A stretch of 8,231 bases of DNA from a virus (taxonomy: Duplodnaviria; Heunggongvirae; Uroviricota; Caudoviricetes). Under the pieces are notes generated by a model. The model saw only the letters and a program-made list of their open reading frames with translations, did no database searches and had not been told where the DNA came from. Positions 722 to 8,231 of this stretch are shown one piece after another (the stretch's first letter is position 1; each line of letters opens with the position of its first letter). The stretch lies in the IMG/VR virus record IMGVR_UViG_2671180695_000017. One strand, 5' to 3'. Made by a program: the position numbers and the translations under genes.

Positions 722-1408
722 ATGACCCCAATAAAAATATTTATGACTATTGCTGATTTCAAACGGCCTAAATTGGAGCTCCCAAACGGGGCAAACAAAC
801 TACTACTGCACTCTTGCTGTGCTCCATGTTCCGGTGAAGTGATGGAGGCGCTTCAGGCCTCGGGAATCGACTACACCATCTTTTTCTACAACCCGAACAT
901 TCATCCTCAGAAAGAGTATTTAATTCGTAAGGATGAAAATATTCGCTTTGCTGAACAACACGGCGTGCCGTTTATCGATGCTGATTACGACACCGACAAC
1001 TGGTTTGAACGTGCCAAAGGAATGGAATGGGAGCCTGAGAGGGGGATCCGTTGTACCATGTGTTTTGACATGCGTTTTGAGCGGACAGCGTTGTACGCTG
1101 CTGAAAATGGTTTCAGTGTGATCAGCAGTTCACTGGGCATTTCACGCTGGAAAAATATGCAGCAGGTTAACGAGTGTGGGCGGCGAGCTGTTGCGCATTA
1201 TCCGGGTATGGTGTACTGGGATTATAACTGGCGCAAGCAGGGCGGCTCGTCCCGTATGATTGAAATCAGCAAGCGCGAAAAATTCTATCAGCAGGAATAT
1301 TGTGGCTGTGTGTATTCTCTGCGCGATACCAATCTACACCGCAAATCTCAGGGACGCCCTCTTATCAAAATTGGCCAACTCCACTACGGAAAAGAAGAGA
1401 AGGAGTGA
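722..1408 (+). CDS. QueH-like protein (DUF208 family, putative epoxyqueuosine reductase)
   Basis: 228-aa ORF with the N-proximal motif [11 protein letters not shown], which I recall as the hallmark CCAPC cysteine cluster of DUF208/QueH, plus further conserved Cys (CTMC, CGC). No obvious Shine-Dalgarno before the ATG at 722; an alternative ATG lies at 743. Family assignment is from motif memory, not a search. Confidence 0.55.
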
Positions 1409-2242: not shown

Positions 2243-3525
2243 GTGCGGGTATTACTTCGACCTGTTCTGGTACCGGAACTCGGGCTGGTGATCGTTAAGC
2301 CGGGCCGTGAATCCATGCCGGTATTCCACAATACCCGGGTACTGGTGGAGCCGGAACCGAAAAGCATGCGTAATCTGTCGTCCGGGGTCGTTCCTGCCGT
2401 TCGCCAGCCGCTGGCGGAGGATAAATCATTACTGCCATTTTTCAGCGACGAACGAGTGATTCGTGCTGCTGGTGGCGCTGGCGCATTGTCTGACTGGTTA
2501 CTGCGCCATGTTAAATCCTGCCAGTGGCCACACGGCGATTATCACCACAGTGAAACCGTCATTCACCGTTATGGTACCGGCGCAATGGTGTTGTGCTGGC
2601 ACTGCGACAACCAGCTGCGCGACCAGACCTCCGAATCACTCGGGCAACTTGCTCACCAAAACCTGTTTGCATGGATGATTGACGTCATACGCCATGCAAT
2701 GAATGGCTCGCAGGAACGGGAATTATCGCTGGCTGAATTATCCTGGTGGGCGGTCCGCAATCAGGTGGCGGACGCGCTACCGGAAGCGGTATTACGTCAG
2801 GTACCGGCGCAATGGTGTTGTGCTGGCACTGCGACAACCAGCTGCGCGACCAGACCTCCGAATCACTCGGGCAACTTGCTCACCAAAACCTGTCTGCATG
2901 GATGATTGACGTCATACTCCATGCAATGATTGGCTCGCAGGAACGGGAATTATCGCTGGCTGAATTATCCTGGTGGGCGGTCCGCAATCAGGTGGCGGAC
3001 GCGCTACCGGAAGCGGTATTACGTCGTTCGCTGGGGTTGCGTGCGGAAAAAATCCGCTCAATGTACCGTGAAAGCGACATCGTACCGGGAGAGCAGACCG
3101 CCACCAGCATACTGAAGCAGCGCACAAAAAATCTTGCGCCGCTGCCTCACGCCCACCAGCAAAACCCGCCACAGGAAAAGACGGTGGTCAGCATTGCCGT
3201 TGATCCGGAGTCACCGGCTCAGTATCTCCAGCGCCAGAAATCACAACGGGAAGAGATGCCTGTATACACGCGTTGGGTAAAAACGCAGAAATGCATGACG
3301 TGTGGCAATCAGGCAGATGATCCGCATCACATCATTGGTCATGGACTGGGAGGGATGGGAACAAAGGCTGATGATTTGTTTGTTATTCCGCTGTGCCGTA
3401 AATGCCATAGCGAACTACACGCCGGGGTAAAAGATTTTGAAGAAAAACACGGCAGCCAGCTGTTGTTGCTGATTCGTTTTTTAATGCACGCGAGAAATTC
3501 GGGTGTTTTGAAGTGGAAAGCATAA
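2243..3525 (+). pseudogene. YbcO-like (DUF1364-type) zinc-binding putative nuclease gene with N-terminal extension, frame-disrupted by a 227-bp tandem duplication
   Basis: GTG at 2243 with GGAGG at 2234-2238. The frame-2 ORF 2243..2905 and the frame-1 ORF 2746..3525 encode the same ~75-aa stretch (GTGAMVLCWHCDNQLRDQTSESLGQLAHQNL...AVRNQVADALPEAVLR) because 2573-2799 is repeated at 2800-3026 (227 nt, equal to 2 mod 3). Removing one copy gives a single continuous 351-codon ORF ending at 3525. The C-terminus (CMTCGNQADDPHHIIGHG...IPLCRKCHSELH) has a CxxC...HH...CxxCH motif and sits directly upstream of rusA, as ybcO does in DLP12. Confidence 0.55.
2573..3026 (+). repeat. Tandem direct duplication, 2 x 227 bp, 3 mismatches between copies
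   Basis: Direct comparison: 2573-2799 and 2800-3026 are identical except three substitutions (ctgtTtgc vs ctgtCtgc; atacGcc vs atacTcc; atgaAtgg vs atgaTtgg). Junction ...attacgtc|ag|gtaccgg. Confidence 0.9.
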
Positions 3526-3906
3526 ATGACTGAACGCATAGAATTTGTTTTGCCTTACCCGCCAACGGTGAACACTTACTGGCGTCGTCGTGGCAGCACA
3601 TATTTTGTATCAAAAGCCGGGGAGCGTTATCGCCGGGCAGTGGCGCTTATTGTTCGCCAGCAGCGGCTGAAATTAAGCCTGTCCGGAAGGTTGGCAATAA
3701 AAATTATTGCAGAACCACCGGATAAGCGCCGCCGTGACCTGGACAATATTCTGAAAGCGCCGCTGGATGCGCTGACGCATGCGGGGTTGCTAATGGACGA
3801 TGAGCAGTTTGATGAAATCAATATCGTTCGTGCTCAGCCAGTATCTGGTGGACGTCTGGGGGTGAAGATTTACCCCATAATGCTTGAAGGGCAGGTCAAA
3901 AAATGA
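3526..3906 (+). CDS. rusA: RusA-family Holliday junction resolvase
   Basis: 126-aa protein with PPDKRRRDLDNILKAPLDALTHAGLLMDDEQ and GGRLGV, matching the conserved RusA core as I recall it for E. coli RusA ([23 protein letters not shown]...DD...GGRL). The ATG overlaps the upstream stop (TAAATG). Confidence 0.85.
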   Translation: MTERIEFVLPYPPTVNTYWRRRGSTYFVSKAGERYRRAVALIVRQQRLKLSLSGRLAIKIIAEPPDKRRRDLDNILKAPLDALTHAGLLMDDEQFDEINIVRAQPVSGGRLGVKIYPIMLEGQVKK

Positions 3907-4724
3907 AACTGGAAGATTTACCGAAATACTACTCCCCAAAATCCCCCGGCCTGACTGATGCATCGGCCTCAACGTCGAAAGATGCGCTGAGTATCACTGA
4001 TGTGATGGCCGCGCAGGGCATGACACCGAATCGGGCTGAGATGGGGTTTTCTGCGTTCCTTGGGAAAATGGGCATTAGTATGAATGACAGAGAGCGGGCA
4101 ACAGAATTGCTGACAGAATATGCACTCAGTCGGTGTGATCGCGTGGCGGCGTTAAGAAAACTCCCGGCAGAAATAAAACCGGTAGTGATGCGCATTATGG
4201 CTTCGTACGCTTTTGAGGATTATGCCCGCAGCGCAGCGAGTAAAAAGCAGTGCCCTTGTTGCTATGGGGAAAAATTTATTGAAAGCGTAGTTTTTACAAA
4301 CAAGGTCCAGTATCCGGATGGTAAGCCGCCGGTATGGGCAAAGTGTACGAAAGGTGTGTATCCGTCTTACTGGGAAGAATGGAAAAAAGTCAGGGAGGTG
4401 GTAAAAGTTGCCTGTCCGGAGTGTGGCGGAAAGGGTGAGGTTTCCACCGCCTGTAAGGATTGCCGTGGGCGTGGTGTCGCCATTCATCGTGAAGAGTCGG
4501 TAAAACGTGGTATGCCTGTTATCAGAGACTGCCAGCGTTGTGGTGGTCGTGGCTGTGAAAGACTACCATCAACGGAGGCATTTAATGCCATATGCAAAGT
4601 GACGAGTGCTATCACGCTTGATACGTGGAAAAAATCAGTGAAACGCTTTTACGATACGTTGGTGGTTCGGTTTGACATTGAAGAGGCATGGGCGGAGCGG
4701 CAGTTAAAGAGGGTAACGCGATAG
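3903..4724 (+). CDS. Putative late-gene antiterminator (Q-like) with DnaJ-type CxxCxGxG zinc-finger repeats
   Basis: Position is diagnostic: directly after rusA (ATGA overlap) and directly before a promoter that matches lambda PR' through its -10 and initial transcribed region. The protein carries CPCC plus three CxxCxGxG repeats (CPECGGKG, CKDCRGRG, CQRCGGRG). The N-terminus resembles what I recall of Qin-prophage Q homologues, but that recollection is not secure. Confidence 0.55.
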   Translation: MKLEDLPKYYSPKSPGLTDASASTSKDALSITDVMAAQGMTPNRAEMGFSAFLGKMGISMNDRERATELLTEYALSRCDRVAALRKLPAEIKPVVMRIMASYAFEDYARSAASKKQCPCCYGEKFIESVVFTNKVQYPDGKPPVWAKCTKGVYPSYWEEWKKVREVVKVACPECGGKGEVSTACKDCRGRGVAIHREESVKRGMPVIRDCQRCGGRGCERLPSTEAFNAICKVTSAITLDTWKKSVKRFYDTLVVRFDIEEAWAERQLKRVTR

Positions 4725-5298: not shown

Positions 5299-6348
5299 AT
5301 GCTTAATACTGTAAAAATATCCAGTTGTGAGTTAATCAACGCCGACTGCCTGGAATTTATCCGGTCGTTACCCGAAAATTCTGTTGACCTGATAGTCACG
5401 GACCCGCCGTACTTTAAAGTGAAGCCTGAGGGCTGGGATAACCAGTGGAAGGGCGACGATGATTACCTGAAGTGGCTGGACCAGTGTCTGGCGCAGTTCT
5501 GGCGGGTGCTGAAACCTGCCGGAAGTCTTTACCTGTTCTGTGGTCATCGCCTGGCATCTGATATCGAAATCATGATGCGTGAACGCTTCAGTGTGCTGAA
5601 CCATATTATCTGGGCGAAGCCGTCCGGACGCTGGAACGGATGCAACAAGGAAAGCCTGCGGGCGTATTTCCCCGCCACAGAGCGCATTCTGTTCGCGGAA
5701 CATTATCAGGGGCCGTATCGTCCGAAAGATGCCGGGTATGCGGCGAAGGGCAGTGCACTGAAACAGCATGTGATGGCCCCGCTGATTTCTTACTTTCGTG
5801 ATGCGCGCGCGGCCCTGGGGATAACGGCAAAACAGATTGCAGATGCCACAGGAAAGAAAAACATGGTGTCGCACTGGTTCAGTGCCAGTCAGTGGCAGCT
5901 ACCGAACGAAAGCGATTATCTGAAATTACAGTCGCTGTTTGCCCGGGTGGCAGAAGAGAAACATCAGCGCGGTGAACTGGAAAAGCCCCACCACCAGCTG
6001 GTGGATACGTATACGTCACTGAACCGGCAGTATGTGGAGCTGCAGAGTGAATATAAGCATCTGCGGCGGTATTTTGGTGTGACGGCGCAGGTGCCGTACA
6101 CGGATGTGTGGACACATAAACCGGTGCAGTTCTATCCCGGGAAACATCCGTGCGAAAAACCGGCAGAAATGCTGCAGCAGATAATCAGCGCAAGCAGTCG
6201 TCCGGGTGACCTGGTTGCAGATTTTTTTATGGGCTCAGGTTCAACGGTAAAAGCTGCACTGGCGCTCGGGCGTCGTGCGATTGGCGTTGAACTGGAGACC
6301 GGACGTTTTGAGCAGACAGTCAGGGAAGTTCAGGATTTAATCGTTTGA
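5299..6348 (+). CDS. Orphan DNA methyltransferase, beta-class (DPPY motif IV N-terminal, FxGxG motif I C-terminal); probably N6-adenine-specific
   Basis: DPPYF at residues 35-39 (nt 5401-5415) and FFMGSGST near the C-terminus (around nt 6224-6247), in the circularly permuted order typical of beta-class amino-methyltransferases. No restriction endonuclease gene is adjacent. Confidence 0.85.
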   Translation: MLNTVKISSCELINADCLEFIRSLPENSVDLIVTDPPYFKVKPEGWDNQWKGDDDYLKWLDQCLAQFWRVLKPAGSLYLFCGHRLASDIEIMMRERFSVLNHIIWAKPSGRWNGCNKESLRAYFPATERILFAEHYQGPYRPKDAGYAAKGSALKQHVMAPLISYFRDARAALGITAKQIADATGKKNMVSHWFSASQWQLPNESDYLKLQSLFARVAEEKHQRGELEKPHHQLVDTYTSLNRQYVELQSEYKHLRRYFGVTAQVPYTDVWTHKPVQFYPGKHPCEKPAEMLQQIISASSRPGDLVADFFMGSGSTVKAALALGRRAIGVELETGRFEQTVREVQDLIV

Positions 6349-6397: not shown

Positions 6398-6473
6398 GGC
6401 CCTTTAGCTCAGTGGTGAGAGCGAGCGACTCATAATCGCCAGGTCGCTGGTTCAAATCCAGCAAGGGCCACCA
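6398..6473 (+). tRNA. tRNA with CAU anticodon, closest to E. coli tRNA-Ile2 (lysidine type, reads AUA); phage ileZ-like
   Basis: Manual cloverleaf: acceptor GGCCCTT/AAGGGCC, D-arm GCTC-AGTGGTGA-GAGC, anticodon loop CTCATAA (CAT at 6431-6433), T-arm GCTGG-TTCAAAT-CCAGC, discriminator A plus encoded CCA. Very similar to E. coli ileX as I recall it. Position 27-43 is an A-C mismatch. Confidence 0.85.
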
Positions 6474-6573: not shown

Positions 6574-6650
6574 GCGTTGTTAGCTCAGCCGGACAGAGCA
6601 ATTGCCTTCTAAGCAATCGGTCACTGGTTCGAATCCAGTACAGCGCGCCA
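6574..6650 (+). tRNA. tRNA-Arg (anticodon UCU, reads AGA/AGG); phage argO/argN-like
   Basis: Manual cloverleaf: acceptor GCGTTGT/ACAGCGC (one G-U pair), D-arm GCTC-AGCCGGACA-GAGC, anticodon stem ATTGC/GCAAT with loop CTTCTAA (TCT at 6608-6610), T-arm ACTGG-TTCGAAT-CCAGT, discriminator G plus CCA. Resembles E. coli argU. Confidence 0.85.
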
Positions 6651-6757
6651 TATTCATTCTTCCAGATTCCTTTCGGCAGAGCCTTATACTGAAATATACC
6701 TGGCTCAGGATATTGTTGAAAATATTATATGTTTGTCAAAAATAAAAGTTCTGTTAA

Positions 6758-7114
6758 GTGTTGATTGAGTGTTTGTTATACGGTCTAATGGTTTTTTCAG
6801 CATTAAATATTTATCATTCATATGGTGTGGGTAGAGTGAATATTGATGAGGCGTCGGGGTGTTTCATCCTTAGGCAGCGTATTGATATAGTCAATGCAGA
6901 ACGAGCAAAGGCCTTCAGCCGTTTGACAGTTTTGTTCTGTACTCCTGATCGTCTTTCGGGAAGAGACGTTATTATTCTGAATAGTGATGCTATACAGAGG
7001 GTTTGCGATGAGTTCATGGTTGCTAATTCAGAATTATTTGCTCTTGTTCAGGAGTACAACAGAATAGCCAGGACCTGTGGTATGGATGAACTTCGGATTA
7101 CTCATCTGGGGTAG
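6758..7114 (+). CDS. Hypothetical cargo ORF (up to 118 aa; start uncertain)
   Basis: Longest ORF in the AT-rich island. Candidate starts are GTG 6758, ATG 6788 and GTG 6836 (the last with a weak GGGTAGAG SD-like element); none has a convincing RBS. No recognisable motif. Confidence 0.3.
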   Translation: MLIECLLYGLMVFSALNIYHSYGVGRVNIDEASGCFILRQRIDIVNAERAKAFSRLTVLFCTPDRLSGRDVIILNSDAIQRVCDEFMVANSELFALVQEYNRIARTCGMDELRITHLG

Positions 7115-7194
7115 ATACATATCTGGATTATCACCTGTTACGGTAAAAAGTGATTGCTTACTGTTTTTGTGAATGGCATTGCAGCAGCCGGATA

Positions 7195-7281
7195 ATGTCA
7201 GTGCTGGCTGACGGTGTGCTGGTGGCGGGTGTGGTGGTTGCTGCTTTCCCGTTGCTGAAAAAGAAAACGCCAGACTGTTAG
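7195..7281 (+). CDS. Candidate small hydrophobic peptide ORF (28 aa) in the ORF-poor cargo spacer
   Basis: ATG 7195 to TAG 7279-7281 encodes MSVLADGVLVAGVVVAAFPLLKKKTPDC, a hydrophobic helix-length segment followed by KKK. The SD is weak (GGA 2 nt upstream), so this may be a chance ORF in GT-rich sequence. Confidence 0.15.
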   Translation: MSVLADGVLVAGVVVAAFPLLKKKTPDC

Positions 7282-7505
7282 CCGGGTATCAGTTAGCGGG
7301 AGAAATTTTTAAATACTTCACAATTCAGGCGGTTGATTGTTGTCTGGTTTGCGGGGAGTTTGTTAAAAGAAACTGGCATGGTGAATCCCCCTGTGCGGAG
7401 GGGCAATCAGCGAGTAGGTATATGGGATAATCGCGGATTCAGGTGCTGGTACTGAATTCACCGGGAGGCACCCGGCACCATGCAATGGCACATAGCGCCA
7501 CTCTC

Positions 7506-7535
7506 CAGCCCCTCTCCGGAGGGGCTGTTTATATT
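7506..7535 (+). terminator. Strong intrinsic terminator (+ strand) between the convergent cargo ORFs
   Basis: Perfect 9-bp GC-rich stem CAGCCCCTC / GAGGGGCTG (7506-7514 pairing with 7519-7527), TCCG tetraloop, followed by TTTATATTGATTTT. The opposite strand lacks a T-tract after the hairpin, so it is oriented to stop + strand transcripts. Confidence 0.55.
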
Positions 7536-7561
7536 GATTTTGTCAGATGTGAGTAAACTCC

Positions 7562-7897
7562 TTATGGACTTTGTTGTTTTAGTCCATAAGGACATATTTG
7601 CAGAGTGCAACGGTTATTAAAGCATTCATTCAATACGTTATCTGTATTTGTAGGGCATTCCTGGCTGTTTTTGATTAAATTCCAGAATGTTTTATTGAAT
7701 GGTACTACGTTGTAAATGGTTACAGGTAGCACTTTGTTATTGAGCATGATGCCTGTGTGAGTCAGTGTAAATATACTTTCAGGAGGTAAGAAAGCATCCG
7801 ATTGATACCAGATTATTAATTTTATTTTACTCCATATGACTGAAAAAGATATTCCGCATGATGGCTGGATAACTGTATCAATCACAATCCACTTCAT
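7562..7897 (-). CDS. Hypothetical cargo protein (111 aa) with C-terminal cysteine cluster, encoded antisense to the late operon
   Basis: ATG (7895-7897 on the minus strand) preceded by AAGGA with a 5-nt spacer. C-terminal C-x10-C-x4-C-x4-C pattern ([23 protein letters not shown]). The last 9 codons and the TAA stop lie inside a perfect 10-bp hairpin (7561-7590). About 33% GC. Confidence 0.45.
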
Positions 7898-8157
7898 TTA
7901 GTTTCCTTGTTTATGCCTTGCTGGTGATGTTCTGAAAAGTATAAATGATATTTTTGATTGTAAACCATAGAGCAGAATTATTTTTCTGATGTTGTTTATT
8001 GTTTATTTAAATGCAGGGTGGTTTATATCTCGTCTTGTAGTTTATCCATGCATATCTGCTTGATGATGAGGTTTTTATTTAAGGTATGGTTTTGTGTTTT
8101 TTCTGTATTACATGTCAGGTATTTTAAAGAATCATTTTTCAGATGGTGGAAAGAACC

Positions 8158-8231
8158 ATGGCATTTAAACACTATGATGTTGTCAGGGCGGCGTCGCCGT
8201 CAGATCTTGCGGAAAAGCTGACACATAAACT
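8158..8231 (+). CDS. 5' end of a gene running off the window; possibly the DUF1737-type small protein found upstream of holin genes in lambdoid prophages
   Basis: ATG at 8158 with GGTGGAAAG upstream; translation MAFKHYDVVRAASPSDLAEKLTHK in frame 1 continues to the window end. It is not in the ORF track because it is truncated. Family assignment is from recollection of N-termini of this family. Confidence 0.35.
   Translation, partial: MAFKHYDVVRAASPSDLAEKLTHK

Follow-up and report, generated by a model that had tools for sequence, protein, structure and literature searches.

The 8,231 nucleotides (nt) analyzed here, referred to as the window, come from a virus of the class Caudoviricetes (IMG/VR record IMGVR_UViG_2671180695_000017) and belong to the late-regulatory region of a lambdoid, Stx-phage-like Escherichia coli prophage. 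The segment under study (positions 7115–7561) lies between a cargo open reading frame (ORF) and a convergent iraM-like gene. A first-pass annotation, made by a model from the letters of the DNA, had described this segment as a hairpin-rich spacer that is locally GC-richer than its surroundings and has no ORF of 60 amino acids or more. Base composition and coding content agree with that description. The GC content is 0.52 at 7201–7500, compared with 0.38–0.42 upstream and 0.30–0.39 downstream, and the longest ORFs that overlap the segment on either strand encode 50, 46, 43, 42, and 40 amino acids. Two features lie in the segment: the remains of a gene encoding a DUF3927 protein and a gene for a small RNA (sRNA) of the STnc100 family. 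Drawing on the family membership of the RNA, its covarying fold, its terminator, the synteny of the region, and the decay of the ORF, we consider it likely that the segment forms the end of a moron cassette, where a decayed DUF3927 gene (7124–7281) is followed by an intact STnc100/PasD-type sRNA gene (approximately 7376–7535).

The STnc100 small RNA

The first-pass annotation had raised the possibility that the segment encodes a small RNA. Indeed, its 3′ 190 nt (7347–7536, plus strand) constitute a full-length match to the Rfam family RF02076 (STnc100), relatives of which are transcribed, detected on northern blots, and bound by Hfq. The match scored 132.4 bits (gathering score, 47; E = 9e-30) and spanned the whole model, from position 1 to position 206 of 206. 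No other Rfam family matched either strand of 6650–8231, even at E ≤ 1.

The window copy possesses the 3′ terminator of STnc100 RNAs. This intrinsic terminator (7506–7535, plus strand) is composed of CAGCCCCUC-UCCG-GAGGGGCUG followed by UUUAUAUU; its stem (7506–7527) contains nine pairs, seven of them G-C, and precedes TTTATATT in the DNA. It folds at −20.3 kcal/mol (z = −4.6), and none of 200 shuffled sequences folded as well, in keeping with its earlier description as a textbook terminator. Only three terminator-like sites, including 7506–7527, were found in 6650–8231. The sRNA, like any moron transcript, has its 3′ end at the terminator (7506–7535).

The 5′ domain of the sRNA (7376–7483, 108 nt) is structured, and all of its elements lie on the plus strand. 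The minimum free energy fold of the window copy reproduces the consensus helices of the STnc100 model (P1, P2, P3b, and P4). P1 (7376–7383/7476–7483) is separated by J1/2 (AAU; 7384–7386) from P2 (7387–7391/7397–7402), in which A7399 is bulged and the loop reads UGUGC. P3b (7435–7442/7452–7459) is followed by P4 (7461–7465/7471–7475), which carries the loop AGGCA. A pseudoknot is generated by pairing between a strand 3′ of P2 and the loop of P3b (AUCAGCG/UGCUGGU; 7406–7412/7444–7450). Two of the GC hairpins listed in the first-pass annotation correspond to helices of this domain: CCCCC/GGGG is P2 and CCGGG/CCCGG is P4.

The folding energy of the whole RNA is modest (z = −1.9 to −2.0). Thermodynamics alone thus gives limited support, and the hairpins are judged real because covariation supports them. 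This check, which the first-pass annotation had recommended, was made on an alignment (A1) of 79 STnc100 copies from diverse Enterobacterales that are mutually less than 88% identical. The paired fraction in the alignment was 89.5% for P1, 97.7% for P2, and 86.1% for P3b, and 15 pairs in these three helices were changed on both sides. The covariation score was 0.305 compared with 0.136 for shuffled alignments, and it was reached by none of 500 shuffles; sliding the partners by one to three columns reduced it to 0.06–0.13. Among the compensatory changes is a P2 variant in which GCGGC...GCACGC replaces CCCCC...GGAGGG with three pairs changed. P4 is invariant and hence uninformative for covariation. 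The assignment of P4 rests on the fold together with this invariance: the 21-nt P4 element has no more than one mismatch in 99 of 103 unique P2-anchored phage copies, and the rare changes are not compensatory, which argues that P4 is kept as sequence and not as structure alone. Two further stretches, the motif GGUGAAU and the UNNGC(G) loop of P2, are likewise near-invariant.

The pseudoknot is absent from the Rfam structure line printed by cmscan. When fixed columns of the MAFFT alignment were scored, it was paired in 40.8% of cases; its register varies by 0–3 nt, and its support therefore rests on register-free permutation tests. A duplex of at least 6 base pairs was found in 55 of the 79 copies, which contain 64 different pseudoknot strand sequences, compared with a mean of 20 (maximum 32) when partners were permuted among sequences. 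The result was replicated in an independent set of phage contigs collected through a P2 anchor (57 of 62, compared with a mean of 21.5 and a maximum of 33); neither test corrects for relatedness among sequences. Characterized relatives keep the pseudoknot with other sequences (CUGGU/ACCAG in EcOnc27 and AUGAUC/GAUCAU in PasD2).

Between the structured domain and the terminator lies a variable, single-stranded linker (AAUGGCACAUAGCGCCACUCUC; 7484–7505, plus strand). The seed of PasD, UGUGAG, is found at the equivalent place, and the linker is a candidate seed region of the window RNA.

Upstream of P1, a conserved GTTTGTTAAAAG at 7359–7369 contains a candidate extended −10 element (TGtTAAAAG; 7361–7369, plus strand). 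In the alignment this weak match reads GTTTGTTAAAA in Escherichia copies. Judged from sequence, 7359–7369 could act as an extended −10 element that would place +1 at G7376 and yield an RNA of 160 nt. A conserved TTGATT/TTGACA motif was considered as a −35 element and rejected; it is 25 nt from the −10 candidate and unusable in that role. The 5′ end of PasD2 has been mapped by RNA-seq. This RNA of 172 nt occupies NC_011601 741157–741328 and begins, at the G of GCAUGGUGAAUCC, with the first nucleotide of P1. It is preceded by TTGACT-18-TAAAAA, with the start 7 nt after TAAAAA. In other genera, canonical promoters adjoin P1. In PasD-like copies, the first ~28 positions of RF02076 probably represent a promoter or leader and not a part of the RNA. 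Homology across phages starts ~57 nt upstream of P1 (window position 7318), just after −10-like hexamers. For the copy in phage Sp5 (L122, 1885–2125), a gap between observed and predicted RNA sizes, described below, suggests either an upstream start near the point where homology begins (TCACAATTCAG) or processing from the 3′ untranslated region (UTR) of stx2AB.

Two further observations concern the body of the RNA. GAGGGGC in the 3′ strand of P2 (7398–7404) and GCCCCUC in the 5′ strand of the terminator (7508–7514) are complementary, which would allow an alternative fold in competition with the terminator; this complementarity is not kept in other genera. In addition, an ATG at 7480, in the 3′ strand of P1 and 11 nt after the GGAGG of P4, opens an ORF of 46 codons (7480–7620, plus strand). 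We rejected this ORF as probably due to chance, the ATG being absent in most relatives, in which the 3′ strand of P1 reads CACCAC or CACCGC.

The remnant DUF3927 gene

A 43-codon ORF (7150–7281, plus strand) precedes the sRNA and is annotated by the Prokaryotic Genome Annotation Pipeline (PGAP) as WP_000562553.1. It matches Pfam PF13064 (DUF3927) with E = 1.3e-26 and 92.7 bits against a gathering score of 25. A second match, to phrog_1470, is limited to residues 12–40; the name “TciB-like” attached to this family comes from annotation only. Intact relatives are ~52–55 amino acids in length, contain two hydrophobic helices, and begin with GTG or ATG after GGAG, as exemplified by (V)TVKLRLAVAALLLFLVVMVDFTSRIMSVLADGVLVCGIVVLLWPVIKRNSLHNA. 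The window copy departs from this organization. A MAFFT alignment with four loci that carry both DUF3927 and STnc100, together with translation, delineated a degenerate start region (7124–7149, plus strand) that reads GGATTATCACCTGTTACGGTAAAA where intact relatives have GGAGAATCACCTGTGACGGTAAAA. The start codon is changed from GTG to GTT and the Shine-Dalgarno sequence from GGAGAA to GGATTA; deletions of 15, 8, and 5 nt (28 nt in total) have removed the first helix; and an in-frame stop codon, TAA at 7144–7146, lies ahead of the remnant ORF. Frameshifted copies of DUF3927 exist at other loci.

The first-pass annotation had drawn attention to a 28-codon ORF (7195–7281) whose product, MSVLADGVLVAGVVVAAFPLLKKKTPDC, was likened to type I toxin peptides. 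The ORF is present and its product is hydrophobic with a KKK sequence, as described; it is, however, the 3′ part of the 43-codon remnant. On the evidence of its alignment and translation, the 28-codon ORF represents what is left of a decaying DUF3927 gene, namely its second transmembrane helix. Its ATG at 7195 corresponds to an internal methionine of intact proteins (...SRIMSVLADG...). Because the bases upstream of this ATG are the same as in intact genes, the codon has no ribosome-binding site that evolved to serve it.

The likeness to a type I toxin did not hold in other respects. The only matches of the ORF in Pfam, NCBIfam, and PHROGs were DUF3927 and phrog_1470, with no toxin family among them, and Rfam revealed no antisense RNA family at the ORF in its search of 6650–8231. 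Complementarity of the sRNA to the 5′ regions of the remnant ORF, the cargo ORF, and iraM was not significant; for the remnant ORF, 31 of 200 shuffled sequences formed a duplex of equal or better energy. Thus, neither an antisense or complementary RNA nor a translatable ORF of a toxin family, the two components of a type I toxin–antitoxin (TA) system, was found.

Homology to other loci that contain DUF3927 and STnc100 starts near 7120, just after the cargo ORF. From ~7174–7215 to ~7526, the window is 75–86% identical to loci in which an intact DUF3927 gene accompanies STnc100. The two occur together in Escherichia-type prophages, where the distance from the DUF3927 stop codon to P4 is 119–205 nt in ~30 of 38 loci. 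We considered and rejected the idea that they form an obligate pair: in a species-wide sample, only 3 of ~120 loci have both, and the linkage is confined to Escherichia-type prophages. DUF3927 and STnc100 are unlinked in other genera.

At this locus, RefSeq records annotate the 43-amino acid “DUF3927 family protein” together with a fragment of an antisense pseudogene, and not the sRNA. Automated annotation therefore misrepresents the locus, since it misses the sRNA while calling ORF debris and an antisense fragment. PGAP places such antisense “hypothetical protein” pseudogene fragments, all on the minus strand, across the sRNA in both E. coli records examined (window 7366–7491; locus L001, 7717–7842; locus L243, 1098–1339); these are probably annotation artefacts. 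In a RefSeq record 99.7% identical to the window, the cargo ORF is also unannotated, and nothing is called between tRNA-Arg and the DUF3927 ORF. The locus is nonetheless one of a known kind: a member of a catalogued sRNA family in a described architecture, together with gene debris.

Genomic setting and copies elsewhere

The window contains, in order, genes for DUF977 and QueH-like proteins, a hok/sok type I TA locus (1476–1801; sok was detected by the Rfam search), DUF968 and RusA genes, the antiterminator gene Q (3903–4724), a DNA methylase gene (5299–6348), tRNA(CAT) (6398–6473), tRNA-Arg(UCU) (6574–6650), the cargo ORF (6758–7114, plus strand), and the start (~8159) of a SASA/nanS-p esterase gene. 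The cargo ORF encodes 118 amino acids of unknown function (phrog_2873; E = 1.7e-70). Between the sRNA and the esterase gene lies the convergent iraM-like anti-adapter gene (7562–7897, minus strand; NCBIfam NF007393, 162 bits). In near-identical genomes, holin, lysozyme, and Rz genes come after the esterase gene. The segment occupies the “moron” slot of the lambdoid late region, which in phage Sp5 holds stx2AB, and phage copies of STnc100 lie between Q/methylase and esterase/holin/lysozyme genes. The window sRNA is thus found where moron-site sRNAs are located, between the PR′/Q-tRNA region with its cargo and the esterase and lysis genes. The cargo ORF, the remnant DUF3927 ORF, and the sRNA may be co-transcribed.

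The region from 6650 to 8231 is near-intact in 863 complete E. coli genomes, and 1661 genomes carry the pair of sRNA and iraM. Diverged pairs exist at 85% and 70% identity. The core-genome iraM locus was considered and set aside; K-12-type iraM is ~71% identical, homology stops at the ORF, and no sRNA remnant is present there. The iraM gene of the window occupies the slot of the anti-sRNA AsxR in the Stx2 phage Sp5. No match to a convergent anti-sRNA partner of the AsxR/AgvB type was found in 6650–8231 at E ≤ 1 by a method that detected AsxR in Sp5. A 12-bp hairpin (CCTTATGGACT...AGTCCATAAGG; 7561–7592) overlaps the stop codon of iraM and is followed on the minus strand by AGUUUACU. This hairpin could serve as a weak terminator or stabilizer for iraM, which otherwise has no terminator ahead of that of the sRNA.

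Other observations relate to the upstream part of the window. The QueH-type epoxyqueuosine reductase gene (722–1408, plus strand; PF02677, E = 1e-65) lies upstream of hok/sok and is an example of a tRNA-modification enzyme carried as phage cargo. The DUF968/HNH-like gene seems to be split into overlapping ORFs in different frames (2243–2905 and 2746–3525, plus strand), which may reflect a frameshift or a programmed feature. ARAGORN calls the tRNA at 6398–6473 tRNA-Met; the matching RefSeq record and Sakai Sp5 (ileZ2) have the syntenic gene annotated as tRNA-Ile.

When one genome per species was scanned with the P4 sequence, more than 120 loci were recovered. They are spread over many genera of Enterobacterales and often contain several copies each, and all of the loci tested were STnc100 by Rfam. 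Neighbor analysis revealed no protein family that consistently accompanies STnc100 beyond ordinary late-region genes. Association with tRNAs was rejected as a general feature; tRNAs lie within 8 kb in only ~17 of 108 loci, although a few copies adjoin tRNA genes. Three such cores (L090 4776–4903, L116 ~440–555, and L081 4622–4740) have no terminator and lie within ~10 nt upstream of a tRNA gene that belongs to a phage tRNA array, which implies that a bare core is released by tRNA processing. Six other terminator-less copies (L014, L015, L021, L084, L087, and L089) share the compensated P2 variant described above and lie 30–65 nt upstream of a Shine-Dalgarno sequence and ATG, in the manner of an mRNA leader. 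The ORFs that follow them are small, uncharacterized, and of phage or island origin; Pfam gave only a weak hint of DUF5983_N. Tandem arrays of two or three full units, in which every unit has a promoter-like sequence and a terminator, were observed in Superficieibacter and Enterobacter (L040 6323–7018, L039 6381–6731, L101 1903–2346, and L035 3418–3847).

Interpretation and comparison with known systems

These findings suggest how the moron-cassette tail might work. The sRNA would probably be transcribed in the lysogen from the weak extended −10 promoter just upstream of P1. The 108-nt 5′ domain is predicted to fold compactly through P1, P2, the loop-to-strand pseudoknot, P3b, and P4, with the 3′ end of the RNA formed at the intrinsic terminator. 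By analogy with characterized relatives, from which we infer the transcription start, Hfq binding, seed position, and targets of the window copy, the RNA would bind Hfq through its 3′ end and act in trans, base pairing via the variable linker 5′ of the terminator while the conserved 5′ domain serves as a scaffold. The terminator would also end rightward, non-antiterminated transcription before it enters the convergent iraM gene. The first-pass annotation had proposed that the segment insulates the antisense gene from late read-through. The terminator does lie between rightward transcription and iraM, as this idea requires. In lambda biology, however, late transcription modified by Q ignores intrinsic terminators. 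Any insulation would therefore be limited to the moron and sRNA transcripts of the lysogen, and the part of the proposal that concerns late read-through would fall away.

Several points weigh against this model. Upstream of P1, a consensus promoter scan called no sigma-70 site, and the conserved final T is missing from TAAAAG, the −10 candidate. On northern blots, EcOnc27 measures ~235/247 nt, compared with 174 nt from P1 to the terminator in Sp5; some copies may start ~55 nt farther upstream (window position ~7320) or be processed from longer transcripts, whereas the 172-nt PasD2 is free of such a discrepancy. The 3′ U tract of the window RNA is interrupted and suboptimal for Hfq, and discrete transcripts that bind Hfq and depend on it for stability are known only from relatives. 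Conservation of the 5′ domain seems to go far beyond what a mere scaffold should need. The targets of PasD come from RIL-seq (ligation of interacting RNAs followed by sequencing) only, and the effects of sRNA103 from overexpression. To our knowledge, no function or validated target has been established for any STnc100-type RNA.

The conservation of the 5′ domain bears on an alternative that we regard as rather unlikely, in which this domain is the functional unit and is bound by a specific protein, ligand, or RNase, with Hfq-dependent pairing being secondary or lineage-specific. The retention of P4 as sequence, the near-invariance of GGUGAAU and the P2 loop, and the covariation of the pseudoknot are all expected from such a unit. 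So are the terminator-less copies beside tRNA genes or in the position of leaders and the spread of the family, often in tandem arrays, through many Enterobacterales genera. However, no partner is known, and none is suggested by the neighbor analysis. The characterized relatives behave as Hfq-dependent sRNAs with seeds in the linker, and PasD keeps its assigned function despite a degenerate core that scores 41 bits.

For the STnc100 family, as distinct from the window copy, we put forward a related idea tentatively, as a possibility that we hold with more doubt than confidence. The 108-nt 5′ domain of STnc100, EcOnc27, and PasD might be an autonomous pseudoknotted module that contains an invariant hairpin, CCGGGAGGCACCCGG, and is recognized by a protein, ligand, or nuclease. 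Across Enterobacterales phages and islands, the module would then exist in three formats—an sRNA with a terminator, a fusion to a tRNA gene, and an mRNA leader—and the family would constitute a class of structured RNAs rather than a set of ordinary base-pairing sRNAs. Few annotated sRNA families are as abundant as STnc100, which adjoins stx2 and yet has no established function. Concrete handles on the role of the conserved domain are provided by the covarying pseudoknot, by the invariant P4, and by the terminator-less copies.

We consider it quite unlikely that the element serves mainly in cis, as a 3′ module that gives the cargo upstream (DUF3927 in the window, stx2AB in Sp5) a terminator and a stabilizing 3′-UTR structure and shields iraM from rightward transcription in the lysogen, with the sRNA as a 3′-UTR by-product. 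This explanation accommodates the strength of the terminator, the EcOnc27 bands that exceed the length from P1 to the terminator, the spacing between DUF3927 stop codons and P4, and the invariable presence of a same-strand cargo ORF ahead of the RNA, which lies 75 nt after stx2B in Sp5 and 40 nt after intact DUF3927 in E2348/69. It is countered by the 5′ end of PasD2, which lies exactly at P1 behind its own promoter-like sequence, and by the canonical promoters that adjoin P1 in other genera. Moreover, a terminator alone would need no covarying, pseudoknotted domain of 108 nt, and the sRNA module has been retained while the gene upstream decays. A type I toxin-like role for the 28-codon ORF, with the neighboring RNA as its regulator, is highly improbable: although the peptide is hydrophobic with a KKK anchor and small hydrophobic ORFs adjoin the sRNA in many phage loci, the ORF corresponds to helix two of a family with two helices and ~55 amino acids, starts at an internal methionine of a gene that has lost its start codon, Shine-Dalgarno sequence, and 28 nt, is frameshifted in other copies, matches no toxin family, and lies on the same strand as an RNA with no significant complementarity to it, while no antitoxin-type Rfam family was detected here by the search that found sok elsewhere in the window and STnc100 occurs without DUF3927 in most genera.

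The reading of the segment as a decayed DUF3927 gene and an STnc100/PasD-type sRNA gene is in line with published work on related loci. Strain EDL933 contains 11 STnc100 copies, all of which have RNA-seq reads and one of which has been confirmed by northern blotting (PMC5331693). The Hfq-crosslinked EcOnc27/sRNA103 overlaps an STnc100 copy located 75 nt after stx2B (PMC12711010, PMC7873438, PMC4104026), and we found that the EcOnc27 northern probe maps to the 3′ strand of P1 and the linker of the Sp5 copy. STnc100 RNA has also been found in outer-membrane vesicles of Shiga toxin-producing E. coli (PMC12370729). In at least eight prophages of Sakai, Tree et al. (2014) described sRNAs between a moron coding sequence and the conserved ORF that follows it, as well as a convergent arrangement downstream of the moron coding sequence (PMC4104026). 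A 2026 preprint relates STnc100 to PasD1 and PasD2 of enteropathogenic E. coli E2348/69 (Pearl Mizrahi et al. 2021; Zhu, Shabalina and Storz 2026, preprint); these RNAs are Hfq-dependent and have targets identified by RIL-seq (PMC8550237).

Among known systems, type I TA loci such as hok/sok resemble the window in having a small hydrophobic ORF beside a small RNA in a prophage. They differ from it in that the window RNA is encoded on the same strand, without antisense overlap or complementarity, and the ORF is degraded. The remnant ORF is clearly homologous to DUF3927 (PF13064)/phrog_1470 in its C-terminal helix, whereas the start codon and first helix of that family are gone.

PasD shares with the window a synteny in which the DUF3927 gene is followed by the sRNA and the SASA/nanS-p esterase gene. 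It also shares the architecture of the RNA, with a P1 that starts with the same GCAUGGUGAAUCC, a P2-like hairpin, the pseudoknot (AUGAUC/GAUCAU), P3b, the linker, and the terminator. PasD is Hfq-dependent and confirmed by northern blotting, and its 172 nt equal the distance from P1 to the terminator. The two RNAs are, however, only 58% identical. The core of PasD is degenerate, its P4 is altered, and its score of 41 bits is below the Rfam threshold; its linker and seed (UGUGAG) differ from those of the window. At the PasD locus, the DUF3927 gene is intact (52 amino acids) and lies 40 nt upstream of PasD2, and no iraM gene separates the sRNA from the esterase gene.

EcOnc27/sRNA103 of Sp5/933W also belongs to STnc100 (207.7 bits) and occupies the same slot, after tRNAs and cargo and before the esterase gene. 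It has been crosslinked to Hfq and detected on northern blots, and its P1, P2, and P4 sequences are identical to those of the window. Overall identity is 66%, with differences in the variable insert, the linker, and the terminator. The cargo upstream of EcOnc27 is stx2AB rather than DUF3927, and its convergent partner is the anti-sRNA AsxR, whereas that of the window RNA is an iraM-like protein gene. The window RNA matches the full model of RF02076, “Gammaproteobacterial sRNA STnc100”, first listed from Salmonella, and has all of its consensus helices.

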